Shown here one piece after another: positions 4,439 to 60,869 of a stretch of DNA of 64,000 nt. The position numbers and the translations under genes were made by a program. Numbering within the stretch: position 1 is the stretch's first letter; every line of letters starts with the position of its first letter. The notes under the pieces were generated by a model that worked only from the letters and a program-made list of their open reading frames with translations, ran no database searches and was not told where the DNA came from. The stretch is taken from the NCBI GenBank assembly GCA_964590105.1, contig CAZPYM010000002.1, positions 154,697 to 218,696 on the forward strand, read 5' to 3'. This stretch comes from an uncultured Gammaproteobacteria bacterium (lineage in GTDB: Bacteria; Patescibacteriota; Patescibacteriia; UBA11705; JABHMO01).

Positions 4439-4494
4439 GAAAAATATATAGGAGAAAATAATGGAAGCGGCTAATCCGCCAATTCGCTAATTCA

Positions 4495-4899
4495 CTAATC
4501 AACCAATTCTCGCGCCTCGTTTAAAACCGCCTCCACATTCGGCGCGCAGTTTTCCGGCAGAGAATTGATGTCAAACCAATCCCATTCTTTGATGTCGGCG
4601 CCAGGCTGAATTTCATTGATTCGTTCGGCTAAATAATGGATTAAAATCACTTGAGTTTTCGGGTCGTTCGGTTTCTGAACCATCATCGGCTTTAATGGTT
4701 TAATAATTTTTAGATCAATGCCCATTTCTTCCTTTGCCTCGCGTCGGCAGGCGGTTTCAAGCGAATCAAGTTCATTATCAAAATCAAAATTTTCCACCCG
4801 GCCGCCGGGAAATTTCCAAAAATTATCACCCCCATGTTTATTCAGTAGAACTTTGTTGTTTTCAATTATTACCGGACCGGAAGCGATTATAAAGTTCAT
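4495..4899 (-). CDS. NUDIX hydrolase.
   Basis: Nudix box GGRVENFDFDNELDSLETACRREAKEEMGIDL (GX5EX7REUXEEXGU pattern). Confidence 0.8.
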   Translation of the reverse strand: MNFIIASGPVIIENNKVLLNKHGGDNFWKFPGGRVENFDFDNELDSLETACRREAKEEMGIDLKIIKPLKPMMVQKPNDPKTQVILIHYLAERINEIQPGADIKEWDWFDINSLPENCAPNVEAVLNEARELVD

Positions 4900-13195: not shown

Positions 13196-13225
13196 CTTCC
13201 CGAACGCATTCGGGAGTTTTTTTTG
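13196..13225 (+). terminator. Intrinsic terminator cttCCCGAAcgcaTTCGGGagTTTTTTTT. Right-hand copy of the island boundary repeat.
   Basis: Stem-loop plus U-run. Near-identical to 6819..6845. Confidence 0.6.
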
Positions 13226-13260
13226 TTACGAATTACGAATCTGCTACGAATCTACGTATC
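13225..13260. repeat. TACGAAT heptamer array (gttacgaattacgaatctgctacgaatctacgtatc). Second copy lies upstream of nusA at 16842..16888.
   Basis: ~35-nt near-identical block at two loci 3.6 kb apart. Confidence 0.6.
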
Positions 13261-14196
13261 ACTATTAATAATAATACTTGCGGTTGAGTTCCATTTTTGA
13301 AGGATTTCCAGCCGCGTATCTTTGTCGTGGAATTTCAACACTTTGTCGTTGATAACAACGTTGGTGTTGTTTTGCTTTGCCAGTTCGCGCAAGTGACGAG
13401 GAAGAACTTTTAGCTGAAATTTTTTAGCCAGAGATTCAGCCCAAAAAAATAATTTGCAATTTAGAGCGCCTTCGGAAATTTTTTGAGTCAGTGGCCGCGC
13501 CTTGATCTGCCAGCGGGCATTTGTTTGCACGGGAAAATAATTTGGCAGATATTTTTTGGTCCAAATATTGGCCTGAAAAAAGTTGTTGATTAATTCCGGT
13601 CGGCCGCAAACCGGCACGAATTGGTTTAGCCAGTAAATAAAGTGTACGTCATTTTCATAAGCCAGCGACTGGAGATTTAAATTGTCTTCGGTAATGTAAA
13701 AGCTCAGACAGATTTTGTCTTTTTGTGATTTGACGGTCGGTCTTTGGCGGAGCAATTTCATGGCCAAAACGCAAAAAAGTCTGGCGGTCCAGATTTTATT
13801 TCTGGCGCAAATAATTGTCAGGTCGATGTCGCTGCCTTCGCGCGCGTTTTGATAAGCCAGATTATTGCAAATAAAAATTGCCCGAACATAGGGCAGTCGA
13901 TTGAGTAGCTGGATATATTTTTTTGCTTTTTTTATTTTCGCCTGGGCCAGTAAATATTTTTTCTTTCTTTCAAAAACAATATTGTCCTTGCGTTTTAAAA
14001 AATAAAATCCTTCGTTTGAGCCGAGGATTTTTTCATTAAGCAGATTATCCAGAGCGAAATTAACTTCATTTAGGGAATAATTTGTTTCCGGCTGCCAGAG
14101 ATTTTTCCATATTTCCCAGCCGGTCAGAGGAAAATCAAAAATATTAAAATACGAAATGGTTCTTAAGATTGTTTTTTCTAGGCTTCTCTCTTGCAT
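13252..14196 (-). CDS. Nucleotidyltransferase-fold hypothetical protein.
   Basis: 314 aa. GSDIDLTI motif typical of the pol-beta-like NTase fold. Confidence 0.45.
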   Translation of the reverse strand: MQERSLEKTILRTISYFNIFDFPLTGWEIWKNLWQPETNYSLNEVNFALDNLLNEKILGSNEGFYFLKRKDNIVFERKKKYLLAQAKIKKAKKYIQLLNRLPYVRAIFICNNLAYQNAREGSDIDLTIICARNKIWTARLFCVLAMKLLRQRPTVKSQKDKICLSFYITEDNLNLQSLAYENDVHFIYWLNQFVPVCGRPELINNFFQANIWTKKYLPNYFPVQTNARWQIKARPLTQKISEGALNCKLFFWAESLAKKFQLKVLPRHLRELAKQNNTNVVINDKVLKFHDKDTRLEILQKWNSTASIIINSDT

Positions 14197-16838: not shown

Positions 16839-16841
16839 ATT

Positions 16842-16888
16842 GTTACGAATTACTAATCAGCTACGAATCTACGAATGGCTATGAATGT
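16842..16888. repeat. TACGAAT heptamer array immediately upstream of the nusA start codon.
   Basis: gttacgaattactaatcagctacgaatctacgaatggctatgaatg. Ends 4 nt from the nusA ATG (minus strand). Confidence 0.6.
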
Positions 16889-19650: not shown

Positions 19651-19658
19651 AACCAATC

Positions 19659-19692
19659 AAAACAACACCCGCGCACGGAGTGTTGTTTTTTT
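19659..19692. terminator. Intrinsic terminator of the AACAAC...CGGAGTGTTGTT family (copy 2).
   Basis: aacaacacccgcgcacggagtgttgttttttt. Confidence 0.6.
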
Positions 19693-21437: not shown

Positions 21438-21443
21438 CCCCTC

Positions 21444-21477
21444 AAAACAACACCCGCGCTCGGAGTGTTGTTTTTTG
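21444..21477. terminator. Intrinsic terminator of the AACAAC...CGGAGTGTTGTT family (copy 3).
   Basis: aacaacacccgcgctcggagtgttgtttttt. Confidence 0.6.
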
Positions 21478-21497: not shown

Positions 21498-22190
21498 CTA
21501 AGCCGTTACCTTTTTCATATAGGCCAACCAAAAATTTCTTTTGTAGCTTTGTCCTTTGAATCTGGTATAGCTGGTTTTTTTCAGTAGTTTGATAATTTTA
21601 AAATATTTTGAATAAAGATTAATAAAATCCTGCCCAATAAAAACTCTTTCAATTAAATGCATATCTTCATTAACGTAAGTATCAGGCTCCGGTCCGGGGT
21701 TAATTTTGAGTAATGCTTTGGCGTTTTTGTCGCCTTCTTTGCACAAAGCTTTCACAAAAAAATAGCCGTTTTCTTTTAATACTCTATGCGTCTCAGATAA
21801 ATATATATACCTCTCTTTTTCATTTAATGAATTGGAAGAGGTGACGTCGAGCGCCAGATCAAATGTTGCGTCTTCAAACGGATATTCTGATCCGATATTA
21901 TGAAGTTTATAATCGACTTTAATTTCCAGCTCTTTGGCTCGGGATATTGCAAGGCCAATTGCCGTCTGGGATATTTCCAGGCCGGCAACTTTGTTGCCCA
22001 GTTCTGCTAAATAATTGGCATTTCGGCCGGTGCCGCACCCCAGATCCAGTATTGCCAGGTTTTCCGGTTTAATGTTTTCCTGCTTTTTTAAGAATTTCAA
22101 AAAGCGCAGTACATCCTTTTGCGGATTGCCTTCTTTTGTGACCAATTGTGGTCTTTGATATTCGTTTTCCCAGGCAGCGGTTTGAGGCAT
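21498..22190 (-). CDS. Class I SAM-dependent methyltransferase.
   Basis: ILDLGCGTGRNANYL motif I. 230 aa. Confidence 0.8.
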   Translation of the reverse strand: MPQTAAWENEYQRPQLVTKEGNPQKDVLRFLKFLKKQENIKPENLAILDLGCGTGRNANYLAELGNKVAGLEISQTAIGLAISRAKELEIKVDYKLHNIGSEYPFEDATFDLALDVTSSNSLNEKERYIYLSETHRVLKENGYFFVKALCKEGDKNAKALLKINPGPEPDTYVNEDMHLIERVFIGQDFINLYSKYFKIIKLLKKTSYTRFKGQSYKRNFWLAYMKKVTA

Positions 22191-22203
22191 AAGTTATACG
22201 CTG
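22126..22203. repeat. Left copy of a 78-bp direct repeat (methyltransferase start codon plus first 25 codons).
   Basis: 75 of 78 nt identical to 24305..24382. Confidence 0.85.
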
Positions 22204-22872: not shown

Positions 22873-22985
22873 GGTTTTTACTGATTATTATTATTATTGT
22901 TTTGTTACGACGCACAACTTGGTATTAGGCGAAAGTGAGCGGAACAGAGTGGAGCGAAAGCGTAGCGTCCCCTTGAGGAGCTCTT

Positions 22986-23552
22986 TCAAAATTCAGCGAT
23001 AATCCAAAAACCGCCCCTTTTTCTTTTTTGATGATATCCAATCTTCATTGATTCGAGAAGTTTATTGAGTTTTACAGCTCTGATTTTTGGTTTATCTATT
23101 TTAGGATCAACCAAAGTAATATCATCATTCTTTATTGATTGGATCAATGACAAATGACCATGACCTTGTCCGTATAAAATTCTATTGTTAATACAAACCA
23201 TTATATCATTACCTTTCTTCAAGTTATCCATAATAAATTCCTTCGAATTTTCAACTTTTTCAACAGGATAATATGTTTCTTTTAGTTTAATATTATTCTT
23301 CAAAAATAATTTATTTATTGAATATTTTTCTTTATGGGTTTGCGTTCCATATTCTTCGTCTGGATCATCTTTAACAATAGCTTTTGTGAATAAATGGGCA
23401 TTTTTTGAAGAAACAACTAAACCCAATTGATTGCCAATTTCTTCTTGTGAGCCATGATCAATTTTTCTTCTATCTAAAATCATGGTTAAGCATGCTGGAC
23501 AACAGCAATGAGGCAATTGAGTAATTGGTTTATAGGGAGGTTTCTGGTCCAT
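22986..23552 (-). CDS. Standalone C39-like (papain-fold, double-glycine-type) cysteine peptidase domain protein.
   Basis: ITQLPHCCCPACLTMIL matches the C39 Q-x4-C-G-x-ACLxMxL catalytic Cys region. GHGHLSLI ... DDITLVDP supplies His/Asp. Confidence 0.5.
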   Translation of the reverse strand: MDQKPPYKPITQLPHCCCPACLTMILDRRKIDHGSQEEIGNQLGLVVSSKNAHLFTKAIVKDDPDEEYGTQTHKEKYSINKLFLKNNIKLKETYYPVEKVENSKEFIMDNLKKGNDIMVCINNRILYGQGHGHLSLIQSIKNDDITLVDPKIDKPKIRAVKLNKLLESMKIGYHQKRKRGGFWIIAEF

Positions 23553-23710
23553 AGAATTGAATATATTAATGGAAAGTTATAAATTTTTTGATTCGTTTTC
23601 TTATTGTAATTCATAAAAAGAAAAGGTAAAAATTTGGGTGGAGTAAACGAGGAAACTTAACTAATTTACCTTGTATTAAAGTCTTTTTTCAATTTTTTTC
23701 GTCGCCGAGC

Positions 23711-23738
23711 TTGACATATTGTTGGAATCTGTTATACT
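23711..23738 (+). promoter_or_regulatory. Sigma70-type promoter TTGACA-16-TATACT.
   Basis: Consensus hexamers. SD AGGGAGGGTAAGATG at 23795. Confidence 0.5.
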
Positions 23739-23794
23739 AAAAAGTTAGCAATTGTGCTGACAACCTTGTTAACGTTGTAGCAAGGGAGGGTAAG

Positions 23795-24226
23795 ATGGCA
23801 AAAGTGTCAGTAGAACGACGCGTCGAGCAGGTTTACAACGGCAGACACTACAAGGGCTACGTAAAGGTCGCCGATAGCAAATTCGACTATGAGCTCGTGT
23901 TCGGAGTTCCGATCGACAAAATGAAGCCGGTCAAGGATGAAAACGAGGTTCGCCGTCTCTTCCAGATCACGGTGAAGCGCGGTAACGTGAACATCGAGCT
24001 TACGAAGGAGGAATACGGCTTCTTTTTCTCGATGGTCGTGGAGTTGGCGGTAAAATTCTACAACAACCCGCAAACCAGAGTGATGGGTATGCTGGTTCAG
24101 GACAGAGGTCCGATGGCTGCCTTTGGTGCTTCCTGTTCGATCTGCATGACGAATAGCGGGTTGTGCGATTTTCCGTCGGAGCTTTGCGAGATGCTGAGTG
24201 CACCGAAGTTTGGTTGTACGTTCTAA
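23795..24226 (+). CDS. Hypothetical 143 aa protein with C-terminal six-Cys segment (GASCSICMTNSGLCDFPSELCEMLSAPKFGCTF). High-GC cassette gene.
   Basis: Strong SD plus consensus promoter plus terminator. GC clearly above the backbone. Confidence 0.5.
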   Translation: MAKVSVERRVEQVYNGRHYKGYVKVADSKFDYELVFGVPIDKMKPVKDENEVRRLFQITVKRGNVNIELTKEEYGFFFSMVVELAVKFYNNPQTRVMGMLVQDRGPMAAFGASCSICMTNSGLCDFPSELCEMLSAPKFGCTF

Positions 24227-24304: not shown

Positions 24305-24382
24305 TAATTTTTTTCTTTTGCGGATTGCCTTCTTTTGTGACCAATTGGGGTCTTTGATATTCGTTTTCCCAGGCGGCGGTTT
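24305..24382. repeat. Right copy of the 78-bp direct repeat (truncated 5' end of a methyltransferase gene, minus strand).
   Basis: Encodes MPQTAAWENEYQRPQLVTKEGNPQK then runs into unrelated sequence. 3 mismatches versus 22126..22203. Confidence 0.85.
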
Positions 24383-24440
24383 GGGGCATATAAGAACATT
24401 GCAATAATTTTTTATTTTTACGGCGGCGTTTCTCTTTTCG

Positions 24441-39924: not shown

Positions 39925-41178
39925 TTATTCTTTTGTTTCTTCTGCTTCTTTATCCTTTTTGTCTTCTTGCGCCTCTTTGTCATCCCGAGCGATCCCGCCT
40001 TTGGCGGGAGAGTCGAGGGATTCTTCAGCATCTCTATCTCCTTTAACTTCTTTATCTTCTTTTTCCGGCTTTTTGCCATCCATTGATTTGATGCTCAGTC
40101 CGAGCCGGTGTTCAGTAGGTTCAATGGAAACAATTCTGAATTTCATGGTGGTTCCTGGTACAGCAAAGCCTTCGGTAGAGTCAATTTTTTTGTCGGATAG
40201 TTCTGAAATATGCGCCAGTCCGTGAATATCTTCATCAAGTTGTACAAATAGTCCGAAGGGAGTTGCTTTCAGTATGATTCCCTCCACAACGTCGTCAACT
40301 TTGTATTTGTCGTGGATGTTTTCCCATGGATCTTTTTTCAGCTTTTTGCTTGACAAGAATATTTTTGAACCTTCGATTTTAATGATTTCTGCTTTTATCG
40401 CATCACCGACTTTAAATAGATCAGCCGGATTTTCAATTCTCTGCCAGGCTAGCTCTGAGATATGAATCAATCCTTCCAGCTTGTCGCCGAATTCCACGAA
40501 CACGCCAAAGTCAGTGACCGCAGTAATTGTTCCTTCCACTATTTCGCCTACGGAAAATTTGCCAAGCACGTCTTTTTGTGTTTCTTCCCAGGCCGCTTTT
40601 TCAGAAACAATCAGTTTTTCGTTTTCCGCATTGGCGTCTAGAACCTTGACAGGAAAACTTTGGCCGATATAGCTTTTCAATCTTTCCAAGATTTTATTCT
40701 TGTCGCCACCTTGAACGCGCGGGTAGAATTCCGGACTTAGCTGGGACACCGGCAAAAATCCGGGGACACTGTTGATCGTTACCAGGAGGCCGCCCTTATT
40801 GGCGTCAATGATTTTGGCCTGCACTGTTTCATTGCTGTCTTTTGATTTTTGTAAAGCTGACCAAGTGCGCTGATGCCCGGCGTAGCGGAAAGAGAGTTCC
40901 ATCTGGCCTTGTTCGTTTTCCAGTTCAATTACAGTGGCTTCTGTTTCGTCTCCGGATTTCAAACTGGCGAATTCATCGGATTCATTATAAAGTTCTTTGC
41001 CTCGGATAATGCCGGTAATAATTCCATTAAAATCAATTAGGACTTCTTTTTTTGAAGCAGATATAACTACGCCCTTGATAATATCGCCTTCTTTGGGCAG
41101 GGTTTTTATCGCCGCATCTTGCTCCAGTAGAGAATTCATGGGAGAAGCTGGATCTGGTTTTACAAATTTTTTAGCCAT
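39925..41178 (-). CDS. rpsA: 30S ribosomal protein S1 (four S1 domains) with charged C-terminal tail.
   Basis: Repeated S1 OB-fold motifs (GxV...G.FV.L..g..Gl.H.SE). KE/D-rich tail. Confidence 0.82.
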   Translation of the reverse strand: MAKKFVKPDPASPMNSLLEQDAAIKTLPKEGDIIKGVVISASKKEVLIDFNGIITGIIRGKELYNESDEFASLKSGDETEATVIELENEQGQMELSFRYAGHQRTWSALQKSKDSNETVQAKIIDANKGGLLVTINSVPGFLPVSQLSPEFYPRVQGGDKNKILERLKSYIGQSFPVKVLDANAENEKLIVSEKAAWEETQKDVLGKFSVGEIVEGTITAVTDFGVFVEFGDKLEGLIHISELAWQRIENPADLFKVGDAIKAEIIKIEGSKIFLSSKKLKKDPWENIHDKYKVDDVVEGIILKATPFGLFVQLDEDIHGLAHISELSDKKIDSTEGFAVPGTTMKFRIVSIEPTEHRLGLSIKSMDGKKPEKEDKEVKGDRDAEESLDSPAKGGIARDDKEAQEDKKDKEAEETKE

Positions 41179-41501
41179 TTTATTATTACTCCTTTCGTAA
41201 GTGTGGTTGCGAAGCTTTCTTTTGTAACAGCTTCCTTATAAAAAAGTCCACTCTAAGGTGGATTTTTGGTAAAATAAATTTTCCTAGATTAGAGTTATGA
41301 ATTAGATAAGATATTAAGGACTTTGATATCAATTGGTATTCTAGCTTATTAATAAATGATTGTCAAGGGTTTTACGGACGGCTTGAGCGCGGGCTGAATT
41401 GCAGGCAATCACAATTGATAAGTCAAGGGTGGCTTTTGTATTTACTTTTCTAAATAATTATGCTAAAATGTTTTTAGAAATTTACTAATATAATAAAAGA
41501 T

Positions 41502-42161
41502 ATGAACATTAGTTGGTTGGGGCATTCTTGTTTTAAAATGGAGGAAAAAATCGGTAGTCAATTGGTTACGATAATTACTGACCCTTATGATGACAGTGTC
41601 GGTTTTCGCCTGCCGAAAATGAAGGCGGACTTGGTTTCAGTCAGCCACGATCATTTTGATCATGCTAATTCGGCGGCAGTGTCGGGAATTGACAGCGCTT
41701 TGCCGATTGTAATTGACCGGCCGGGTGAATATGAAGTCAAGGGCGTGTTTGTCCAGGGCATTGGCGCTTATCATGACAAAAAACAGGGCGCAGAACGCGG
41801 TAAGTCAGTGATGTTTATGTTTGACATCGGCGGAATAAACGTCCTGCACTTGGGGGATCTTGGCACTACCCTGTCCGATCAGCAATTGGAAAAAATAGAC
41901 GATATTGATATTTTGCTGATCCCGGTCGGAGGTAATTATACGATCAATGCCAAAGAAGCGGCTGAAGTCGTGCGTCAGCTCGAGCCGCGGATTGTTATTC
42001 CAATGCACTACAAAATTCCAGGGCTTAAGATTGACATTGAGGGCGTGGAAAATTTCAAAAAAGAAATGGGTGGCAAAGCGGAAACATTAAATAAATTAAA
42101 AGTTAATAAAAAAGAATTGCCTCAAGATGAATGCCGGCTAGTACTTTTGGAAAAAACATAA
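41502..42161 (+). CDS. MBL-fold metal-dependent hydrolase (UPF0173-like).
   Basis: HDHFDH motif and conserved Asp/His downstream. Confidence 0.75.
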   Translation: MNISWLGHSCFKMEEKIGSQLVTIITDPYDDSVGFRLPKMKADLVSVSHDHFDHANSAAVSGIDSALPIVIDRPGEYEVKGVFVQGIGAYHDKKQGAERGKSVMFMFDIGGINVLHLGDLGTTLSDQQLEKIDDIDILLIPVGGNYTINAKEAAEVVRQLEPRIVIPMHYKIPGLKIDIEGVENFKKEMGGKAETLNKLKVNKKELPQDECRLVLLEKT

Positions 42162-42179
42162 ACATAAAAATAAAAATAT

Positions 42180-42554
42180 ATGAAGGAAAAAGATCCAAAT
42201 GCCAAATATTTAACTCTGTGGTTGTGCGTGATTGTTTCCGCCGGCATAATTTTTTCCGGCTGGCTGTTTTCTGTTAAGTACAATTTTAAAAAGATTAATG
42301 ACCAGATGCAGAACAATGGAGCGACTATAGAGAAAGCAACTGCCGAGATGGAAGATATGTTTGCTGGGATGAATGTGCAGCTGGAAAAAGCTTCCGAGCA
42401 ATTGAAGGAAGTTGAAAAAAACCTGGGAGAAGAGCCGGTTGAGCAGGCAATTAAACCTGCAGAGGAAATTACGGCAAGCGATGAAGTTGTTGTTCCAGCG
42501 GATCAAGATGTTACAAAAGACGAAGGCGTTGCGTTGGAGGAGCCCAAAGAATAA
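42180..42554 (+). CDS. Hypothetical membrane-anchored coiled-coil protein.
   Basis: One TM, then a charged helical region. Confidence 0.4.
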   Translation: MKEKDPNAKYLTLWLCVIVSAGIIFSGWLFSVKYNFKKINDQMQNNGATIEKATAEMEDMFAGMNVQLEKASEQLKEVEKNLGEEPVEQAIKPAEEITASDEVVVPADQDVTKDEGVALEEPKE

Positions 42555-42619
42555 TTAACAGATTATTAGCTTTACCTGTCAAATGGAGCGGGTAATTCTT
42601 GTTTACATAGACAAATAGT

Positions 42620-45130
42620 ATGAAAAAAAGTAATGAAAAAAAGAGCGAGCCAAAAGTGCCGGAGAAACCAAGAGACCAAATTGAGGATGTTTCGATTGTT
42701 GATGAAATGGAAAATAGTTATATTGACTACGCCATGTCGGTTATCGTTTCGCGTGCACTGCCTGATGTTCGCGATGGTTTGAAACCGGTTCACCGCAGAA
42801 TTCTTTATGCCATGTGGAATATCGGTTTGAAACCCAGCGCCAAATTTCGTAAATCAGCTACCGTGGTCGGTGAAGTGCTCGGCAAATATCATCCTCATGG
42901 CGATCAGGCTGTTTATGATTCTATGGCTAGAATGGCTCAGGATTTTAATATGCGCTACATGCTTGTTCACGGCCAAGGTAACTTCGGCTCAATGGACGGT
43001 GATCGCCCGGCGGCAATGCGTTATACTGAAGCCAAATTGCGAGCGATTTCCGAGGAACTTTTGATTGATTTGGAAAAAGACACAGTTAATTTTATTCCCA
43101 ATTACGACGGCACGCAAAAAGAGCCGAGCGTCCTGCCGGCCAAATTGCCTCATTTGCTTTTGAATGGCAGTGTGGGGATCGCAGTTGGTATGGCGACAAA
43201 AATTCCGCCGCATAATCTGACCGAAATTTGCGACGCGGTCTGCCATCAAATTGACAATCCTGATTGCGAGGCGGAGAGTTTGATGGAATACATCAAGGGC
43301 CCTGATTTCCCGACCGGCGGAATTATTTATGATACCGAAGAAATCAAAAGAGCGTATACCACGGGCAAAGGCAAGATCGTAATGCGCGGTAAAACTGAAA
43401 TTGTTGAAGAAAAACAAGGCCAATTTAGAATTATAATTTCAGAAATTCCTTATCAAGTAAATAAGGCTACTTTATTGGAAAAAATTGCTGAATTCGTCAA
43501 AATTAAAAGGTTGGAAGGTATAAAGGACGTGCGCGACGAGTCAAATAAAGAAGGCGTGCGCATTGTCATTGAGCTGAAGCGTGACGCTTATCCGAAAAAA
43601 GTATTGAACAGGCTGTTCAAGTTGACGCCGCTCCAAAGTAATTTTGACGTTAATATGCTGGCGCTCACAGGCGACCTCCAACCAAAGGTGATGAATTTAA
43701 AAGATATTCTGGGCTATTATTTGGAACATCGGAAGGAAGTGGTGCGACGGCGGACAGCTTTTGAATTAAGAAAAGCAGAAGAGCGGGCGCATATTTTGGA
43801 GGGATTGAAAAAAGCCATTGATAATATTGACGCCATTATTAAATTAATTAAAAAATCAAAAGACAGAGAAACCGCCAAACAAAATTTAATTAAGCAATTT
43901 AAATTTACCGAAGTGCAGGCAGTGGCGATTTTGGAAATGCGTTTGCAAAATTTGGCCAATCTCGAAAGAATAAAAATTGAAGACGAGCTAAAAGAGAAAA
44001 AACAAACAATCAAGGAGCTGAAAGAATTATTATCGTCTGAAAAGAGAATATTGGGAGTGATTAAGTCCGAGTTGATTGAGATCAAGGAAAAATTTGGTGA
44101 TGAACGCAAGACAAAAATAATAAAATCAGCGGTCGGTGAATTTTCACAAGAAGATTTAGTGCCCAATGAACCGATGTTGGTCATGGTGACGCATGATGGG
44201 TATATTAAAAGAATGCCTGTTGATACTTTCAAAGTTCAACAGCGCGGCGGCAAGGGCGTGATCGGATTGACAACAAAAGAAGAAGACGTGGTGGATCTAT
44301 TATTTAGCACCACAACTCATAATAATTTACTGTTCTTTACTTCGGTCGGCCGAGTGTTTCGCTTGAAAGCTTATGAATTGCCGATTGGCCAGAGGACAGC
44401 CAAGGGACAGGCGCTGGTAAACTTTTTGCAGCTGGGTCCTGACGAAAAAGTAACTGAGATATTGCCGATCAAAGATCAAACTGCGATGAAATATCTTTTC
44501 ATGGCAACGGAAAACGGCACGATCAAAAAAACACCGATTGAAGACTTTAATAATGTTAGGCGTTCCGGTCTGATCGCTATTAAACTTAAACCTGCCGATC
44601 GCTTGCGCTGGGTGAGTCTGACTGACGGCACAAAAGAAATAATGCTTATTTCCGCGCGTGGCCAGGCAATCAGATTTAGTGAAGAAGATGCCAGAGCAAT
44701 GGGTAGAACAGCTTCCGGTGTGAGAGGAATGAGACTCAAGCAGGGAGACAAATTGGTTGGCGTCGGCCTAATCAGTCCGGACAAAGCCAAGGAACTGCAG
44801 GTTTTAACCATTTCTGAAAATGGTTTTGGCAAACGCACTGATCTGGAGTTTTATAAAGTGCAAAATCGTGGCGGCGGCGGCATCAGAACATTGAAAGTTT
44901 CAACCAAGACAGGGAAAGTTGTTAAAGGCCTGGTAATTAATAAGGCGGAGAGCATTGAAGATGATATTTTGGTTATTTCAAATCACGGTCAAGCTATTCG
45001 CATGCCATATAAAACAATTAGCGAGCTCGGAAGAGACACGCAGGGCGTGCGCCTGATGCGATTCAAGGAAGCCGGCGACGCGGTGGCGACTTTTTCCAAA
45101 ATGATAACAGAAGCAAAAAAACGGGAATAA
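42620..45130 (+). CDS. gyrA: DNA gyrase subunit A.
   Basis: 836 aa. AMRYTEAKL active-site Tyr region, QRDR motifs, C-terminal beta-pinwheel repeats. Confidence 0.97.
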
Positions 45131-45159
45131 AGTAAGGCGGTAAAAATATAATTAGATAA

Positions 45160-45198
45160 AAAGTCAGGCGGGCCCTCGAAGGCCGCCTGACTTTTTAA
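45160..45198 (+). terminator. Intrinsic terminator after gyrA.
   Basis: agtcaggcgggccctcgaaggccgcctgactttttt. Confidence 0.75.
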
Positions 45199-45374
45199 AT
45201 TTTGCTGTTTCGGCCCCCCCGCTTTTTGATGATTTCAGGACGGCCATTTTTATCTAAAATTGCGGATTTAATTATGGCTAGATTGACAAAACTAGAAAAG
45301 TATGAAAGGATAGAACATCAATGGATGAATGTAACCTTTGATCAGGGAGGAAAAAATGGAAAAAAGCTGAAGTT

Positions 45375-45625
45375 GATGTGGCGGTGGTGGAATCAGAACT
45401 TTGAAAGTTTCAAGTAAAACAGGAAAGGTAATTCGAGGTGTTGTTGTTGATAAGGAAGAAAATAAAGATTTAGATATTTTAGTAATTTCTTAGAAAGGTC
45501 AAGTAATTAGATTACCATTCAAGAGTATTAGTGAGCTTGGTCGTGATACGCAAGGTGTGCGATTGATGAGATCTAAATAAGCTGGAGATACTGTTGTGAC
45601 TTTTTCACAAATTGTTGGCGAAGGT
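45375..45625 (+). pseudogene. Decayed duplicate of the gyrA 3' end (last ~85 codons) with in-frame stops.
   Basis: Aligns colinearly with gyrA 44868..45112. Reads ...[65 protein letters not shown]... versus gyrA ...[67 protein letters not shown]... Confidence 0.75.
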
Positions 45626-45670
45626 GATGTGAAAAGGCAGAAATTGAATTGGGTAAAAAGTAAATTAGAT

Positions 45671-45705
45671 AAAAAAAAAGAACAAGTTACTTGTTCTTTT
45701 TTTAT
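45671..45705. terminator. Bidirectional terminator (A8-agaacaagttacttgttct-T7).
   Basis: Perfect 7-bp stem flanked by A and T runs. Confidence 0.6.
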
Positions 45706-45760
45706 TTATTAAAAAGAAAGAGGCCAATCGTTTTAGATTGACCTCAATGTTGGCAGGTGG

Positions 45761-46012
45761 TTATGAGTGGAAGAGCTCCACTGTGGCAGGGCTACCAAAA
45801 CGGCTAGATAGGAAAAACTTCCAGGCCCCTTCTTCTTCCATCAGATACCCTTCACTGCGAAGGATATAAGATTTTTCCCCTTTTCTTTTTATAATCCTAA
45901 CTACACGATCAATTCTTTCGTCGGTTTCGTAAGCGAATGGCTTGATAGATGTTTTTACTTCATCGCCCAGTTTTGGAGTGTACATCAGATCTCCTTTTAA
46001 GAAGAGAACCAT
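45761..46012 (-). CDS. Hypothetical small protein.
   Basis: ORF only. Directly downstream of 46047..46877 on the same strand. Confidence 0.3.
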   Translation of the reverse strand: MVLFLKGDLMYTPKLGDEVKTSIKPFAYETDERIDRVVRIIKRKGEKSYILRSEGYLMEEEGAWKFFLSSRFGSPATVELFHS

Positions 46013-46046
46013 GCTAAATTTTCTTAACTTGGTTCAGTGTTAAATA

Positions 46047-46877
46047 CTAGAAACCGTGTTCTTTTAACCACGCCAGAACTTTTGGCGATTTTTCACTTTT
46101 TCCGCAGTCTGGCAAATCTCCGATGACTGCTTTTATTCCTGCGGCTTTAATGCAACCCTCAAGAATTTCACGCGGTACAGAACCTGTGCCTTGTGATGTA
46201 CCACTGAAGATTATTTTCCCATCTTCTTCGTGAGCATATCCACCTCCGATAATGGCGTCGTGACCCTTTCCATCCTTAAAAGATTTTGAAGCAAATTCGT
46301 CTTTTGTAAGTTCAATAGCATATTCCAAAATCGATGAATGACGAAATGCGTCCAGGATGAATAGTTTCACTTCATGCTCAGCAAAAGCCACGATAAATCT
46401 TTTCGCTGACCGTTCTTTGTGGTATCTATCCGTAAAATCAATAAAAGCTTTCTTTTTGAATACAATATCTCCTTTTCGTAATCTGTCTGCACTTTTTCTG
46501 ACCAAAGTTTTTCTTCTTAAAGATATTTCTTCTTTAATCAAGAAAAAGTGAATTTCCGTTAGTGGATCCTTGGATCCTAGAATCCTCATGTAGTCATCCG
46601 CTTTTCTCTCTGATTTTCCCCTTGATTTTTTCAGTTCAAGAAATTTATCAATTAATTTCTTTGTGGTCAATCTCGCAAAGCCAGTGTCAAAACCCCTTAG
46701 AAAGATGACCTCTTCCAGGAAGGCGGCTACTTCTTCTGTCGTTACTTCCGACAGATCTACTTCTTTTATGACTTTGATTAAGTCGTCCAAGGATAATTCC
46801 AGGACCGGGTCAGATACGTCCGGAATTTCTACTCCACGGCACCTGAGACTTGCGATCGTTTCAGATATAAATTTCAT
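46047..46877 (-). CDS. Hypothetical protein (276 aa).
   Basis: Long ORF. No family recognised. C-terminal GGGYAHEEDGKIIFSGTSQGTG Gly-rich loop. Confidence 0.45.
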   Translation of the reverse strand: MKFISETIASLRCRGVEIPDVSDPVLELSLDDLIKVIKEVDLSEVTTEEVAAFLEEVIFLRGFDTGFARLTTKKLIDKFLELKKSRGKSERKADDYMRILGSKDPLTEIHFFLIKEEISLRRKTLVRKSADRLRKGDIVFKKKAFIDFTDRYHKERSAKRFIVAFAEHEVKLFILDAFRHSSILEYAIELTKDEFASKSFKDGKGHDAIIGGGYAHEEDGKIIFSGTSQGTGSVPREILEGCIKAAGIKAVIGDLPDCGKSEKSPKVLAWLKEHGF

Positions 46878-47056
46878 AGTCGCTCCATGTCTTTTTGTTG
46901 TTAAGGATCAGATTTTTATCTTACAAGTGCATTATAACATTAAATTCTCAAATTGTCAATGATTGTGTCGTAATAATTTGACAACAATTTTTTACTTATT
47001 TATAATGTTTATATGGCTATATTTGTTTTTTTGTATAAAATATTTAACTTAATTCT

Positions 47057-47854
47057 ATGAATGATTTATTCTCAATACAAAGTTTATTAAAAGAATTCTC
47101 TTTTTCTGATTCTGAAGCAAGAATTTATTTGGCAATTTTATCTTTAGGCAAAGCTAAAGCAGCGGAAATTGCCATTAAGGCTGATTTAAATAGAACTGCA
47201 GTTTACTCAAGTTTGGAGGGATTAATACAGCGAGGTTTTGTAGCGAAGGTTGAAGTTAATAAAACTTTCCATTTTATGGCTGTTTCACCAACGGAGCTGG
47301 CTACGAAGTTCCAAAGTTTAACTGATGATTTTAAAACTGTTGTGCCTGAGCTAGAGGCTCTGAATAAAGTTGATCGTGAACGACCAATAGTAGAAATTAG
47401 CGAATCACAAATTGGTTATTATAAAGTTTACGAAGAAATTTCCAATTTGCCACAAGACGGTGTTTTTCGAGTGATAGAGGGAAAAGAATCATATTTGCAT
47501 GAGTTGGGGCTTTTGTCTGATCAACAGCTGAATAATTTTTTTAGCAAATTAATTCAAAAGAATATTAAGACGAAAGGGATTTTTACTCGTGAATCTTTGG
47601 GTATCCCTAATTTAAAATTAAATCAGGAAAACTTGGCGTTGGATAAGCAAAGAGATTGGGATATCAAGGTGTTGGATAAAGAAATTTTGCCTTTAGAAGA
47701 TTTAGCTTTGATTTATGGCAATAGAGTTTCATTTTTGTTTCCCAAGTTGTCATTAGTGGTGACTATTCGTCATCAGGCTTTAGTTGATATTTTAATCGCC
47801 ATGTTTGATTGTATTTTTTATTTTGCTGAGGCGGTTCCAGCTCCATGGAAATGA
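47057..47854 (+). CDS. TrmB-family transcriptional regulator.
   Basis: N-terminal wHTH SDSEARIYLAILSLGKAKAAEIAIKADLNRTAVYSSLEGLIQRGFV. Confidence 0.6.
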   Translation: MNDLFSIQSLLKEFSFSDSEARIYLAILSLGKAKAAEIAIKADLNRTAVYSSLEGLIQRGFVAKVEVNKTFHFMAVSPTELATKFQSLTDDFKTVVPELEALNKVDRERPIVEISESQIGYYKVYEEISNLPQDGVFRVIEGKESYLHELGLLSDQQLNNFFSKLIQKNIKTKGIFTRESLGIPNLKLNQENLALDKQRDWDIKVLDKEILPLEDLALIYGNRVSFLFPKLSLVVTIRHQALVDILIAMFDCIFYFAEAVPAPWK

Positions 47855-47901
47855 ACGTACCCAAAAACAAAGCCGGTGAGCTTTGTTTTTGGTTTGCGAA
47901 A

Positions 47902-48849
47902 CTATTGGCTAATTATCCTCCAGCTGTTTTCGGATTTTTTTAGTTTTCCTCTGATTGTAAAGCCGGCTGCTTTGGCATGTCCGCCGCCGCCAAATTTTTG
48001 CGCCAATTGAGAAACATCAATATTGTCTTTGATTGTGCGCAGGCTACATTTAATGAAGCCGTCTTCAGTCTCGCGGATAACAATAATTATGTTTGCTTCG
48101 TACAGAGTGGTTAAAAAATTAGCCATGCCCTCGAAAACTTCCGGCATGATGGCGTCTTCCTTGCTGATTATCGCGGAAACCACTTTATATTTCGAATTGA
48201 ATTGCAATTGCGAAAGGATTTTCCCCCAGACCCTGAGTGCTTCGGGGCTGTTTTTCTTCCAGGTGTTGCGAATTATTTGTTTGATATTCGCACCGTGCTG
48301 AAGTAGTTCCGAAGCCGCGGACATGGCGCTTTTGGTTGTGCCGGCATTGGTAAAGTAGGTGGTGTCGGTGATTATGCCAATGAGAAGACAGGTGCAGATT
48401 TGCTTGGTCAATGGAATGGAATTGTTTTTTAACAAACGATATACGATTTCCGCAGTGGCGCTCGCCGGTTCAACAATATTCAAATTGCCGTAATGCGGAT
48501 TTGTCTGATGATGATCAATGTTTATAATAGGTAGATAATCTTTTACTTCGATCAACTTTTCAGATAGTCCTGTTTGCGAGGTGTCGCCGCAATCCAGGCA
48601 AATCAGCAAATCAAAGTCGCGCAGATTAATGTTTTCGTTCTGATAAGTAAAGCGGGCGAGTTCTAAAAAATCGAGCATTTGTGGCACAGGATCAGGATAG
48701 TGTATTAGAACTTTTTTTTGCAGACTTTCAATATACAAAGCCAGCGCGCCGGCTGATCCCATTGTGTCGGCATCAGGATTGCGGTGGCAAAGAAGAAGTA
48801 TGTTTTTGCTTTGATTGATTTGAGAAAATAATTTTTCAGAATTGTTCAT
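47902..48849 (-). CDS. DHH/DHHA1 phosphoesterase (NrnA-like).
   Basis: LLCHRNPDADTMGS (DHH motif I-II), DHH, GGGHAKAAG (DHHA1). Confidence 0.8.
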   Translation of the reverse strand: MNNSEKLFSQINQSKNILLLCHRNPDADTMGSAGALALYIESLQKKVLIHYPDPVPQMLDFLELARFTYQNENINLRDFDLLICLDCGDTSQTGLSEKLIEVKDYLPIINIDHHQTNPHYGNLNIVEPASATAEIVYRLLKNNSIPLTKQICTCLLIGIITDTTYFTNAGTTKSAMSAASELLQHGANIKQIIRNTWKKNSPEALRVWGKILSQLQFNSKYKVVSAIISKEDAIMPEVFEGMANFLTTLYEANIIIVIRETEDGFIKCSLRTIKDNIDVSQLAQKFGGGGHAKAAGFTIRGKLKKSENSWRIISQ

Positions 48850-48854
48850 AAAAC

Positions 48855-49187
48855 TTAATTGTTCAGATCGTCCAGAGTTTGATAAATCTCGCTCGCGGTT
48901 TGTTCTGTGTCGTCCAGAACAAAGTTTAGCCTTGGCGTGAATTTGAGCTTGATTTTTTTGCCGAGAAGACCCTGAGTTTCGTGGCGGTTATTTACTAAAA
49001 ATTTTATTCCTTCCTCCGCCTTGCTAAAAGGCAGAACGCTGACAAACACTTTGGCTGTTTTTAGATCACTGCCACAGTCAAGTCTGGTGATTGTCAGGAA
49101 AAAATCAAAAGGCACTTCTAGGTTTTGAGAAATGATTTCTGCCAGCGCCTTTTGCAGCATGGAATTTACTTGGAGTATTCGGGACAT
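48855..49187 (-). CDS. rbfA: Ribosome-binding factor A.
   Basis: 110 aa. KH-like RbfA pattern (...TITRLDCGSDLKTAKVFVSVL...). Confidence 0.82.
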   Translation of the reverse strand: MSRILQVNSMLQKALAEIISQNLEVPFDFFLTITRLDCGSDLKTAKVFVSVLPFSKAEEGIKFLVNNRHETQGLLGKKIKLKFTPRLNFVLDDTEQTASEIYQTLDDLNN

Positions 49188-49195
49188 AAAAGGAA

Positions 49196-49216
49196 AACAA
49201 ATTACAAATTACAAAT
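49196..49216. repeat. TACAAAT heptamer tandem (acaaattacaaattacaaatg) 10 nt upstream of the rbfA start.
   Basis: Exact 15-mer shared with 21420-21434. Confidence 0.55.
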
Positions 49217-49331
49217 GCTCTATGTTCTATGATATATGAGTCAAGGTGTTATATTAGTTCATTATAGCAAACCTGTCAAGATTTAGAAGCGTGTTTTGTT
49301 TGGCGTAAAATAAGAGGAAGATTAATAATCA

Positions 49332-49360
49332 TTGACAAAAATATTTTTTAATGGTATGCT
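49332..49360 (+). promoter_or_regulatory. Sigma70-type promoter TTGACA-17-TATGCT.
   Basis: Consensus hexamers. SD CAAGGAGGTACACCATG at 49403. Confidence 0.55.
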
Positions 49361-49402
49361 CCCTCAGTTAGGGATTGTCCCTGTATTTCAAGGAGGTACA
49401 CC

Positions 49403-49900
49403 ATGAAGAAGGTTTATCTGTTTGTTTTCGCTCTGATACTGGTTGGTTTTTCTTCAGCTTCGGCCGGGGAGAACAAATCCTTTACCGGGTACATCCAGGT
49501 GGATGACAACTGGAAGGATGTGCGAATCCTCCGTAACGTGGCCTTCAGTCCCGACGGGACAAAGATGCGCGTTGTTGAGAGGGTGGAGACCATGCTGGTC
49601 GAATGGGTTCGTTCCGACATGGGGCGGTGGATCTTCCGGTCGGTAGTGGAGAACGGCGTCTGGTTCGACCAAATCGTGGTTGAGAAAGACAAGACTGTCT
49701 GGGCCGAGAAAATCGGCGATGGTGGCGACAAGATTTTCCGTTTCGAAGCAACGCGCGTGACGGAAGGCGTGGACAAATGCTACAACTACCGTTGCGGTGC
49801 GATCTACCAAGTCGAGGCAATTCCCTCGTCCTGCAAGTGGAATGGGCCGGGGGGGGGCTGTACGATTTCAGAAGATGACAAGAAGAGCCTTGTGAAGTAG
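49403..49900 (+). CDS. Secreted hypothetical protein (signal peptide, 4 Cys near the C-terminus). High-GC cassette gene.
   Basis: MKKVYLFVFALILVGFSSASA signal. C-terminal CYNYRCG...SCKWNGPGGGCT. GC visibly above the backbone. Confidence 0.5.
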   Translation: MKKVYLFVFALILVGFSSASAGENKSFTGYIQVDDNWKDVRILRNVAFSPDGTKMRVVERVETMLVEWVRSDMGRWIFRSVVENGVWFDQIVVEKDKTVWAEKIGDGGDKIFRFEATRVTEGVDKCYNYRCGAIYQVEAIPSSCKWNGPGGGCTISEDDKKSLVK

Positions 49901-49904
49901 TTTA

Positions 49905-49947
49905 CGACCAAGCAGGGTTGGCTCAATGAGCCGAGCCTGTTTTTTTA
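49905..49947 (+). terminator. Intrinsic terminator after the secreted-protein gene.
   Basis: ggctcaatgagcc / cagg...cctg hairpins plus T7. Confidence 0.55.
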
Positions 49948-49993
49948 ATATGAACGTTGAAAAATTTCTGCAAATGAATTATGCTGGAGAAGT

Positions 49994-51349
49994 ATGAAAA
50001 GTTTGCTTAAAAAATTTATTCCTAGGGCGGCATTGAATTTTTACCACAAATCACTGGCAATTTTGTCAGCGTTTGTTTATGGTTTTCCAAGCAACAAAAT
50101 GATTGTTGTCGGCGTTACCGGCACCAATGGAAAATCAACTACAGTTGCTTTGATCGCCAAGGTTTTGGAATCGGGCGGCGCAGGAGTGGGCGCGACTTCA
50201 ACGGTTGGTTTTAAAATTGCGGATAAAGAATGGCTGAACGATAAAAAAATGACAATGCTCGGCCGATTTCAGTTGCAAAAACTCTTGAAGAAAATGGCTC
50301 AAGCCGGATGCAAGTATGCTGTGCTTGAAGTTTCGTCAGAAGGGATTAAGCAGTATCGTCATTTGGGTATTAATTTTGATTATGCGGTTTTTACAAATTT
50401 AACGCCGGAGCACTTAGAGTCGCATGGCGGATTTGATAATTATAAGCGGGCGAAAGGGGAATTGTTTCAGCACTTAACAAAACGTAAAAAAATAATAAAA
50501 CAATCCCTCACCCCGTCCTCCGTCGTCACGCCGGATGACCCAGAAGTGAAAAAGACGGCTATTGTGAATATTGACGACAAGCACGCGGAATATTTTTTGA
50601 CATTTTCGGCGGATAAAAAAATTAAATTTTCCGTAAAAAATGAAAATGCAGATTTGATAGCGAAAAATATTCAGGTTTCAACGGCGGGTACGTCATTTGA
50701 AATTAACGATAAAAAAATAAATCTAAAACTAATCGGAGCTTTTAATGTTGAAAACGCTTTGCCGGCAATTGCGGTTGGAATTGAAGAGGGAATTGCTCTG
50801 GAAAAAATAAAACAAGGATTGGAATCTGTAAAAGTTGTTCCCGGGCGAATGGAAGCGATTGATGAAGGCCAGCCTTTCTCTGTGCTTGTTGATTATGCGC
50901 CGGAGCCGGCGTCGATGGGAAAGCTCTATGAAACGATAATTTTGATCAACCAATCAACCAATCAACCAATCAACCAAATTATCCACGTTCTTGGTTCATG
51001 CGGTGGCGGTCGGGACAAGGCGCGCCGGCCTGTTCTCGGCAAAATGGCAGGGAAAAATTCTGACATTGTAGTTGTCACAAACGAAGATCCGTATGATGAC
51101 GATCCAATGGAAATAATTGATCAGGTTGCGGCGGGGGCGCTTGAAGTCGGAAAAAAGCTAAATGAAAATTTATTTAAAATATTAGACCGCAAGCAGGCGA
51201 TTGAAAAAGCATTAAGCCTGGCAAAACAAGGTGATCTGGTTTTAGTTACCGGCAAAGGTTCTGAACAGCGCATGGCGGTGGCCGGTGGGAAATATGTGGA
51301 GTGGGATGATAGAAGTATAATTAGGGAAATTTTGTCAAGGGCAAATTAA
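49994..51349 (+). CDS. murE: Mur ligase, MurE-like UDP-N-acetylmuramoyl-tripeptide synthetase.
   Basis: VGVTGTNGKSTT P-loop, DYAPEP, LGSCGGGRD (FGcGGdRD-like). Contains an in-frame octanucleotide tandem repeat. Confidence 0.78.
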   Translation: MKSLLKKFIPRAALNFYHKSLAILSAFVYGFPSNKMIVVGVTGTNGKSTTVALIAKVLESGGAGVGATSTVGFKIADKEWLNDKKMTMLGRFQLQKLLKKMAQAGCKYAVLEVSSEGIKQYRHLGINFDYAVFTNLTPEHLESHGGFDNYKRAKGELFQHLTKRKKIIKQSLTPSSVVTPDDPEVKKTAIVNIDDKHAEYFLTFSADKKIKFSVKNENADLIAKNIQVSTAGTSFEINDKKINLKLIGAFNVENALPAIAVGIEEGIALEKIKQGLESVKVVPGRMEAIDEGQPFSVLVDYAPEPASMGKLYETIILINQSTNQPINQIIHVLGSCGGGRDKARRPVLGKMAGKNSDIVVVTNEDPYDDDPMEIIDQVAAGALEVGKKLNENLFKILDRKQAIEKALSLAKQGDLVLVTGKGSEQRMAVAGGKYVEWDDRSIIREILSRAN

Positions 51350-58931: not shown

Positions 58932-60869
58932 ATGAACAAATATGGAATAATTAAAAACCTGGTATTTTTTGTCATTATCTTTTTGTTCATTGCCAGCGTC
59001 TTCAGCTTATATAATGTTTCTGATCATGAGGTGGCGGATATTGACATTCAAAAGATGATTGAGGAAATCAATCAGGAGCAGGTACAAAAAATTTCAATCG
59101 AAGGCAGTATTTTGCAGCTGACGCTCAATGACGGCACCAAGCAAAAACTAAAAAAGGAAACTTCGGAATCGTTTTCAGAGCTGTTGAATAATTTCAAAGT
59201 TGCTGAAGACAAAATGAAAAAGTTTTCAATTGAAGTAAAGGAAGAAAGCGGCTTCAGTTATTGGATGGCGTCTTTATTGCCCTTTCTGATCCCGCTTTTG
59301 TTTATCGGCGGATTTATTTGGTATATGATGCGCCAGGTGCAGGGAGCGAACACGCGGGCAATGGGGTTTGGCCAGAGCCAGGCGAGGCAAATCAAGCCGA
59401 ACGGCAAAGATAAAGTCACCTTCAAAGATGTGGCTGGAGTAAAAGAAGCGAAAGAAGAATTAAAAGAAATTGTTGAATTTCTAATGCATCCGAAAAAATT
59501 TACTTCTCTCGGCGCCAAGATTCCCAAGGGCGTACTTCTCATGGGTGCGCCAGGCACCGGCAAAACAATGCTGGCCAAGGCTGTTGCCGGAGAAGCGGAT
59601 GTGCCATTTTTCACTATTTCCGGTTCAGAATTCGTGGAAATGTTTGTGGGCGTTGGAGCGTCAAGGGTTAGAGATTTATTCAAAAAAGCAAAAAAGAATT
59701 CTCCATGCATTATTTTTATCGATGAAATAGACGCTGTCGGACGGCAGAGAGGAACAGGACTTGGCGGATCGCATGATGAGCGCGAGCAGACGTTGAATCA
59801 GATCTTGGTTGAAATGGACGGCTTTGATCCCAATACTAATGTTATTGTAATGGCTGCGACAAACCGGCCGGATGTTCTTGATCCGGCGCTGCTCAGACCG
59901 GGCAGATTTGACCGGCGCGTAATTCTGGATTTGCCTGACATCAATGACCGAGAAGAGATTTTGAATGTGCATTCTAAGAAAAAGCCCTTGGCAAAAGAAG
60001 TGGATATTCGTCAGATAGCCGAACGCACACCCGGATTTTCCGGTGCTGACCTGGCCAACTTATTTAATGAAGCGGCGATTTTGACCGCCAGAAGAGACAA
60101 GAAAAAAATTACGCAGGATGAATTGGTTGAAAGCATTGAAAAGGTAATGCTCGGACCCGAGCGGAAGAGTCATATCTTGTCAGTTGAAGAGAAAAGGATT
60201 ACCGCGGTCCACGAAGCTGGGCATGCTCTTGTTTCTCATGTTTTGCCGCATGCGGATCCGGTGCACAAAGTTTCAATTATTTCCCGCGGACGAGCGGCCG
60301 GATATACCATGAATTTGCCGGAAAAAGAAAGGTATTTGCATCGAAAATCAGAATATATTGATAGTTTGGCAGTTTTACTGGCCGGGCATATTGCGGAAAA
60401 ACTTGAATTTGGCGAAGTGACAACTGGCGCGTCCAATGATTTGCAGCGCGCCACGGAGATAGCCCGCAGTTTAATCACCCAATTTGGCATGAGCGAAAAT
60501 TTGGCGCCGCGAGTTTACGGCGAAAAAGAAGAATTGGTTTTCCTTGGCCGCGATATCCGCGAACAGCGCAATTATTCTGAAAAAGTGGCGGAAGAAATTG
60601 ACGCCGAGATTGACGCCATGGTTCGCGTAGCCGCCAAAACAGCGGAAAAAGTCATTACGGAAAACAAGGAGAAGATGGATAAAATTGTGGCTAAACTTCT
60701 GAAAGACGAGACAATTGAAAAGAATGAATTTTTGGCTCTTATGGGAGTGAAGGTGGAAGAAGCAAAAGAAGAGAGCGGTGCTGAAAAATCCCTCGACGCT
60801 ACCGCCAAAGGCGAGATCGCTCAGGAGGATAAAGATATTAAAGAAGATAAAGAGGTGAAAGAAGTTTGA
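58932..60869 (+). CDS. ftsH: ATP-dependent zinc metalloprotease FtsH with charged C-terminal tail.
   Basis: 2 TMs, AAA module (GAPGTGKT), HEAGHA zinc motif. Confidence 0.95.

Follow-up and report, generated by a model that had tools for sequence, protein, structure and literature searches.

Within the window, by which we mean the whole 64-kb stretch of DNA analysed here, an intact gyrA gene and a convergent gene for a DHH/DHHA1 phosphoesterase are separated by 2.77 kb of DNA, at the left edge of which lies a degenerate copy of the gyrA 3' end, hereafter the ghost. The gap holds, in order, a spacer, the ghost with its UTR and terminator (term2), a minus-strand terminator, a small ORF (o83) and a 276-aa ORF (o276), both on the minus strand, promoters and a TrmB-like gene. 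The features are as follows.

42620-45130 (+): intact gyrA, 836 aa when read from its first ATG, 824 aa by gene callers, which start 12 codons later
44867-45130 (+): last 88 codons of intact gyrA, the segment aligned to the ghost in the alignments
45139-45162 (+): A-rich 3' UTR motif, copy 1, GGTAAAAATATAATTAGATAAAAA, partly conserved in the relative L172
45157-45197 (+): native gyrA terminator (term1), a 15-bp perfect stem, TAAAAAGTCAGGCGG/CCGCCTGACTTTTTA, then a T run
45198-45376 (no strand): unique non-coding spacer of 179 nt, bounded on the right by the left breakpoint of the imported piece
45377-45625 (+): the ghost, a pseudogene remnant of the 3' end of a foreign gyrA (last CTD blade); its core, 45378-45618, is 95.4% identical in nucleotides to gyrA of the relative L001
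45619-45675 (+): ghost C-terminal tail and UTR; the A-rich motif recurs here as copy 2 (45652-45675)
45673-45703 (+): AT-rich ghost terminator (term2), 14 pairs then a T run, from a terminator scan
45720-45745 (-): terminator of the o276-o83 operon, from the terminator scan
45761-46877 (-): small ORF (83 aa; called as 74 aa) and orphan 276-aa ORF, island cargo, no family
46931-47006 (both strands): two back-to-back sigma-70 promoters, predicted for o276 (-) and for the TrmB-like gene (+)
47057-47854 (+): TrmB-family HTH regulator (PF01978, 2.6e-17), AT-rich (GC3 28%), island cargo
47902-48849 (-): DHH/DHHA1 phosphoesterase gene bounding the insertion on the right; in relatives it adjoins gyrA directly

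Positions 45377-45625 (+) align in frame and without gaps with the last 81-88 codons of gyrA at ~68% nucleotide and 67% amino acid identity (E about 1e-25), which confirms the colinear copy of the last ~85 codons, with an identical core, that had been proposed from the sequence alone. By blastn, 44868-45162 and 45378-45675 are 68.75% identical over 304 columns (E=2.7e-23), close to the ~70% that the sequence-only reading had expected for 44868-45112 against 45375-45625; by tblastn, GyrA residues 755-832 match 45392-45625 with 66.7% identity over 78 aa (E=9.5e-26). Rather than being confined to a short low-complexity stretch, the similarity is colinear, is not of low complexity and spans one whole CTD blade, including the identical 15-residue core. 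The ghost starts 246 nt 3' of the gyrA stop codon, beyond the strong hairpin terminator at 45157-45197, in agreement with its earlier placement ~250 bp downstream of gyrA and after the gyrA terminator. It is interrupted, as had also been pointed out, by in-frame TAG (45491-45493) and TAA (45578-45580) codons, the codon matching the stop of intact gyrA reads AAA, and the ~750 5' codons of gyrA are missing: a tblastn search of the 64-kb window with the whole of GyrA returned no match besides gyrA itself and the ghost, and no upstream gyrA sequence in the latter. The ghost is a pseudogene, in which colinear homology to a functional gene is combined with truncation, disabling mutations and the donor-type sequence and composition described below. 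Three pipelines (Logan, ENA/megahit, JGI) assembled the same structure, 99.99-100% identical across 40047-51039, out of at least 12 independent samples, the contigs having been traced through the orphan ORF beside the ghost and the DHH gene; this recurrence shows that the structure is real and not an artefact.

The ghost has a GC content of 36% and a GC3 of 20%, against 46% and 47% for the matching segment of intact gyrA and a GC content of 42.4% for the window. Identity between the copies at the three codon positions is 73/82/39%, a pattern which shows that the AT-richness of the ghost is not drift of a local copy, and the saturated pS of 0.77, with a pN of 0.18, is the mark of two alleles whose divergence took place while both were functional.

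A survey with a single genome for each species found the relatives of the window organism to be Patescibacteria close to Candidatus Falkowbacteria; nearest of all stands L001 (GyrA 82% identical in amino acids), and the GyrA of a Cand. Falkowbacteria MAG is 77% identical to that of the window. It is also L001 that holds the nearest relative of the ghost, whose core (45378-45618) is 95.4% identical over 241 nt to the 3' end of L001 gyrA (L001 8195-8435; E=1e-108), against a background of only 68-73% nucleotide identity between window and L001 for gyrA and three flanking genes. When the window was compared with 163 non-self loci, the ghost was the sole patch to reach 85% identity or more, and it is of foreign origin. 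L001 is a low-GC genome (locus GC 31.8%; gyrA GC3 11-26% along its full length), the GC3 of window genes being 40-47% and that of intact gyrA 37-60%. The ghost thus carries the sequence of its donor together with the donor's composition: of the earlier description of an AT-drifted copy, the AT-richness stands (GC3 20%), whereas the drift gives way to an L001-type composition that was inherited.

Ghost and L001 gyrA differ by 7-8 synonymous third-position and five non-synonymous changes (R>C, S>L, Q>TAG, F>S, Q>TAA). C>T accounts for 4/5 of the latter, and both stops derive by C>T from Gln codons (CAG>TAG, CAA>TAA). The synonymous excess (dS 0.136, dN 0.028, dN/dS about 0.2) indicates that most of this divergence built up while the donor and L001 copies were functional, only ~3% following inactivation. 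With about 3% of change since inactivation, the import is recent. The match to L001 ends at 45618, ~8 codons short of the end of the gene.

Searches for the donor genome itself, made at the protein level with a repaired ghost and with the last 165 aa of L001 GyrA, gave only short gyrA fragments, the best 78-82% identical; a short-query protein search of this kind seems to favour proteins of like length. The one metagenome scan made for the donor was swamped by the conserved ELGRDTQG pattern (best match 66%) and missed the source contig itself, and viral contigs yielded no exact match to a ghost 41-mer and no relative of o276. Recurrent 97-aa and 137-aa 'GyrA C-terminal' proteins were considered as stand-alone ghosts and rejected, as they are pieces of split or frameshifted gyrA calls. 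In the locus L089 (1061-3630; Cand. Falkowbacteria GW2011_GWF2_39_8, LBXO01000018.1) gyrA is called as 687 + 137 aa, and in L091 (3008-5294) in eight pieces, which looks like the result of frameshift errors in a 1-Mb contig; split calls such as these explain the many 97-aa and 137-aa proteins of the database. We note also that L001, L003, L004, L006 and others are deposited as 'uncultured Gammaproteobacteria' (TPA assemblies). Their gene order is common with Patescibacteria/Falkowbacteria MAGs and their GyrA proteins are 69-82% identical, on which grounds the Gammaproteobacteria labels look wrong.

The intact gene is native throughout, and there is no evidence for a mosaic functional gyrA. Its composition is like that of other window genes along its full length, the ranking of eight relatives is essentially constant over nine consecutive 88-aa windows of GyrA, and in the last of these L001 (66%) again precedes L002 (61%) and the others; no discordance in composition or in the ranking of these eight relatives was found between the 3' end and the 5' part. 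The comparison of the C-terminal domain with the rest of the gene, proposed earlier as a check, accordingly gave the same ranking for the last 88 aa, and the C-terminal mosaicism suggested by the sequence-only reading has no evidence for it in composition, in relative ranking or in the L172-like UTR and terminator. With blastn, the match between L172 and the intact copy extends through the first UTR (UTR1) and term1, with a common TCAGGCG...CGCCTGA stem; L172 has its DHH gene directly after the gyrA terminator. The alignment of the ghost to L172 ends where its coding part ends. Homology through term1 with DHH next in line implies that the native gyrA unit ends at 45197 and that the DNA from 45198 on was inserted. 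The relevance to quinolone resistance that had been raised falls away as well: the fragment comprises only the last CTD blade, about 650 codons from the QRDR, whose HPHGD... motif is seen in the window GyrA translation, and the ghost has no bearing on quinolone resistance. As an observation independent of the ghost, the GyrA residue that corresponds to E. coli Ser83 (window about 42884-42920) is Gln here and in L002 and Ser in L003, a difference that may have a bearing on intrinsic susceptibility to fluoroquinolones.

The ghost lies in an insertion hot spot. In L001, L004, L006, L017, L172 and L173 the order is a lactamase_B-like gene, a small ORF (o124), gyrA and, within about 100 nt, a convergent DHH/DHHA1 gene. 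The same gyrA-DHH spot holds different, unrelated ORFs in L002 (185 aa, in a gap at 8454-9184) and in L003 (288 aa and 150 aa, in a gap at 3606-5066), and it is these differing ORFs among relatives that identify the spot as an insertion hot spot in the clade. The remnant, which the sequence-only reading had advised looking for in relatives, is particular to the window: a downstream gyrA ghost was found in 0/163 gyrA-bearing loci, all secondary matches lying within gyrA itself, on the preceding CTD blade. L001-L020 lack all three island ORFs. o276 has no homologue but itself among 5.8 billion proteins and one match, at 34% identity, among 1.8 billion representatives, its AF2 model (pLDDT 37) is unusable, and neither it nor o83 matches a family in Pfam, PHROGs or NCBIfam. 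The two promoters, at 46931-46959 (-) and 46978-47006 (+), each match the sigma-70 consensus at 12/12 positions with a 17-nt spacer and lie in intergenic DNA of 20-25% GC; matches as perfect as these are unusual. In composition o83 and o276 are not L001-like, so that an origin of ghost and cargo genes in a single event is unsupported. No integrase, transposase or relaxase was detected in the island (Pfam, PHROGs, NCBIfam), no tRNA lies at the locus and Rfam returned only sub-threshold hairpin matches. The right border (47855-47901) holds no gyrA-like repeat, the gyrA-end repeats bracketing only 45163-45377 (about 214 nt). A 15-nt repeat at 45193/47814 was considered as an att site and rejected, being a chance-level 13/15 match that lies within the TrmB coding region.

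The two copies of the A-rich UTR motif (45139-45162 and 45652-45675) agree at 21/24 nt, and the similarity of the ghost tail and UTR is about equally weak to UTR1 of the window (p about 0.01) and to the L001 UTR (p about 0.03). The 24-nt motif, taken initially as evidence of a window-type ghost tail, was downgraded in view of the comparable alignment to the L001 UTR; the ghost tail and UTR being slightly nearer to the window UTR (21/24) than to that of L001, the ghost copy could once have been joined to window-type sequence. term1 and term2 are unrelated in sequence, and term2 is probably part of the imported fragment, the right boundary of which lies between 45618 and about 45705. The left breakpoint (45377) falls inside a Gly run, GGNGGNGGNGG, joined to unrelated DNA. 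By blastn and tblastx the spacer (45198-45376) resembles no other part of the window, upstream gyrA and the region after the ghost included, and none of the fetched loci. GTGGCGG is present in the ghost as in the resident copy, and no convincing junction microhomology or homologous anchor could be identified. Immediately to the left, 21 nt 5' of the ghost and in frame with it, a GGGAGG-N6-ATG stands at 45356 and is followed by two TGA codons (M-E-K-S-*-S-*); this strong SD and its ATG (45356-45376) may be the decapitated start of another gene captured at the junction.

Taken as a whole, we consider it probable that the ghost is a short, non-functional fragment of a foreign gyrA trapped beside an untouched native gyrA at an insertion hot spot. 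The donor would have been a different low-GC lineage of Patescibacteria, of which L001 is the closest sequenced representative, and the captured piece would measure ~250-330 bp, comprising the last CTD blade and probably the UTR and terminator that belong to it (45378 to about 45705); the most economical version is one capture of ~330 bp with blade, tail, UTR and terminator. The fragment would have become fixed just 3' of the recipient's complete gyrA and native terminator, no resident part being replaced, its left end at 45377 representing an illegitimate junction with unrelated DNA. We infer as its route the uptake of short DNA followed by illegitimate or homology-facilitated illegitimate recombination, or else filler capture during break repair. 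Decay after arrival would amount to about 3% of change, including the two C>T nonsense mutations.

Two other histories had been offered by the sequence-only reading, an allelic replacement in which an incoming gyrA 3' end displaced the resident one and a tandem duplication followed by decay. From the former, the involvement of a different gyrA allele through recombination or horizontal transfer is borne out; the polarity is not, the remnant itself being foreign and the intact 3' end native. Displacement of a resident end appears less parsimonious and would survive only as a two-step scenario, in which L001-like DNA converted the 3' end of the ancestor's gyrA and a conspecific native-type end (with UTR1, term1 and the 179 nt), which was anchored in upstream gyrA and formed an illegitimate junction at the Gly run, later pushed the mosaic end downstream in the manner of orphaned Rhs/CDI/T6SS 3' ends. 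Displaced 3' ends are a documented result of homology-facilitated illegitimate recombination (PMC5361080), and the L001-like tract does stop inside the gene (45618), to be followed by a window-colinear tail and UTR (KR[QE]-stop, the 21/24 motif). Against this, the ghost UTR aligns nearly as well to the L001 UTR, term2 is unrelated to the clade-type terminator common to term1 and L172, intact gyrA has no breakpoint in composition or relative ranking, and the spacer lacks the trace of a DHH 3' end expected from a conspecific donor with the ancestral gyrA-terminator-DHH order. We regard this scenario, which requires two rare inter-lineage events instead of one, as unlikely. Local duplication of the gyrA 3' end with neutral AT-biased decay would account for adjacent, colinear copies in the same orientation, the downstream one AT-richer and with stops, and yet the substitutions pile up at third codon positions (73/82/39%; pS 0.77 between copies), the ghost is 95.4% identical to the functional gyrA of another genome, nothing like the spacer follows the second copy and the terminators are unrelated, all of which refutes this history.

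The ghost could also be read as the scar of an integrative element, Campbell-type or site-specific, that carried a gyrA 3' homologue from an earlier L001-like host, picked up for example by imprecise excision, and that has since lost its recombinase. In its favour, a unique segment stands between diverged direct repeats of the gene end (44868-45162 and 45378-45675), the 2.7-kb island next to the ghost holds strongly promoted orphan genes that are AT-richer, and a second island in the window is likewise edged by a gene-end fragment. The repeats, however, flank 214 nt only and not the island, whose right border has just the chance-level 13/15 match; an element-borne copy is expected to be fused to the working gene, which the ghost is not; and the island has no detected integrase, transposase or relaxase, no tRNA and no viral-contig match. 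In our estimation such an origin is improbable. The metagenomic source, in which an L001-like donor lineage may co-occur, raises the possibility of an assembly or binning chimera of two co-occurring populations, but an L001-like tract of just 241 nt with non-L001 sequence on both sides, recurring at 99.99-100% identity in at least 12 samples and three pipelines and bearing two nonsense mutations that are missing from the functional gene, makes a chimera highly improbable. Equally slim is the chance that the ghost is functional, either as a small GyrA-CTD-like protein made by readthrough or recoding or as a regulatory RNA. The SD and ATG in frame 21 nt upstream, the ghost's own terminator and the replacement of Gln by both internal stops, as in TAG/TAA-to-Gln recoding, speak for a function. 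On the other side, the four in-frame stops (2 TGA, TAG, TAA) comprise every kind of stop codon, TGA and TAG terminate genes of the window, nonsense mutations arise most commonly by C>T at CAG or CAA, Rfam gave no match and the unit is conserved in no other genome.

Set beside known systems, the ghost of our preferred reading, a trapped foreign fragment, is of an ordinary kind: it is a horizontally acquired pseudogene fragment, a scar of DNA uptake. In streptococci, interspecies mosaic alleles of gyrA, which are linked to fluoroquinolone resistance, and of parC arise by replacement of the QRDR part of the functional gene, and no ghost is left. The present case shares with them inter-species recombination involving gyrA sequence; it differs in that the working gyrA shows no mosaicism and in that the fragment spans a C-terminal blade only. 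Integrative elements can leave partial duplications of their target genes (tRNA, tmRNA and protein-gene 3' ends) at their borders, which the ghost, as a diverged duplicate of a gene 3' end at an island edge, resembles; unlike at such borders, no integrase was detected, the island is not enclosed by the repeats and the copy fused to the gene is not the element-type one. Short-patch double illegitimate recombination is a further related process. The trapping of foreign DNA by homology-facilitated illegitimate recombination is known from natural transformation in Acinetobacter, S. pneumoniae and P. stutzeri (PMC3240628, PMC5361080). As in those cases, short DNA of a diverged species here lies beside the homologous locus with at least one non-homologous breakpoint and no mobile-element machinery; the classical cases, in contrast, are experimental and usually pair the insertion with a deletion. 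The orphans of Rhs, CDI and T6SS loci (PMC5361080) are similarly truncated 3' ends from a different allele just 3' of an intact gene. At those loci it is the newcomer 3' end that the intact gene carries and the former resident end that is orphaned, usually in company with an immunity gene and often as part of an array (PMC5361080), whereas here the orphan is the foreigner, the intact gyrA is native and no polymorphic toxin-like 3' end is involved; the intact 3' end is not discordant, and the orphan matches the L001 type and not the window allele.

A second gene-end ghost is present in the window at 24315-24390 (-). It corresponds to 22116-22191 (-), the first 25 codons, MPQTAAWENEYQRPQLVTKEGNPQK, of a methyltransferase gene (21498-22190, -), lies 2.2 kb upstream of that gene and is 96% identical to it in nucleotides, 3/3 differences being synonymous third positions; unrelated sequence and hairpins follow directly. 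The 2.2 kb between the methyltransferase copies contain S51-like and C39-like peptidase ORFs and a stretch of 28% GC (22901-23800). This arrangement appears to match that of the gyrA ghost, namely an island edged by a scrap of a neighbouring gene from what would be another allele. Three further repeats were noted. Positions 39945-40052 and 60757-60864 (inverted) are 80% identical in nucleotides and encode a common acidic, Lys-rich C-terminal tail of ~36 aa (...EESLDSPAKGGIARDDKE... in one of the two) in an S1-domain protein gene (39925-41178, -) and a 645-aa ORF (58932-60869, +), which may be a shared module or another trace of recombination. A 35-nt intergenic hairpin, CAAAACAACACCCGCGC.CGGAGTGTTGTTTT, occurs in two copies with 97% identity (19657-19691 and 21442-21476), and a 47-nt intergenic motif, TTACGAATTAC.AATC.GCTACGAATCTACG, in two copies with 87% identity (13223-13269 and 16840-16886).

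The finding corrects a tempting misreading, in that the functional gyrA is not shown to be mosaic, and it singles out the interval between gyrA and DHH as a hot spot of insertion in the clade. The ghost provides a clean and recent trace (about 3% decay) of transfer between lineages of Patescibacteria that share about 72% nucleotide identity. The presence of two ghosts in a 64-kb window suggests that scars of this kind may be common in this genome and that foreign DNA, integrated illegitimately, may visibly shape such reduced genomes. It is a more speculative and rather doubtful proposition that gene-end fragments mark a regular route of island gain in ultra-small Patescibacteria, by which DNA taken up from ~70%-identical neighbours would integrate beside conserved housekeeping genes and leave scraps of donor gene ends where the islands meet their flanks. 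If this were true genome-wide, such ghosts would be direct, datable records of DNA donors and recipients among uncultured CPR bacteria.
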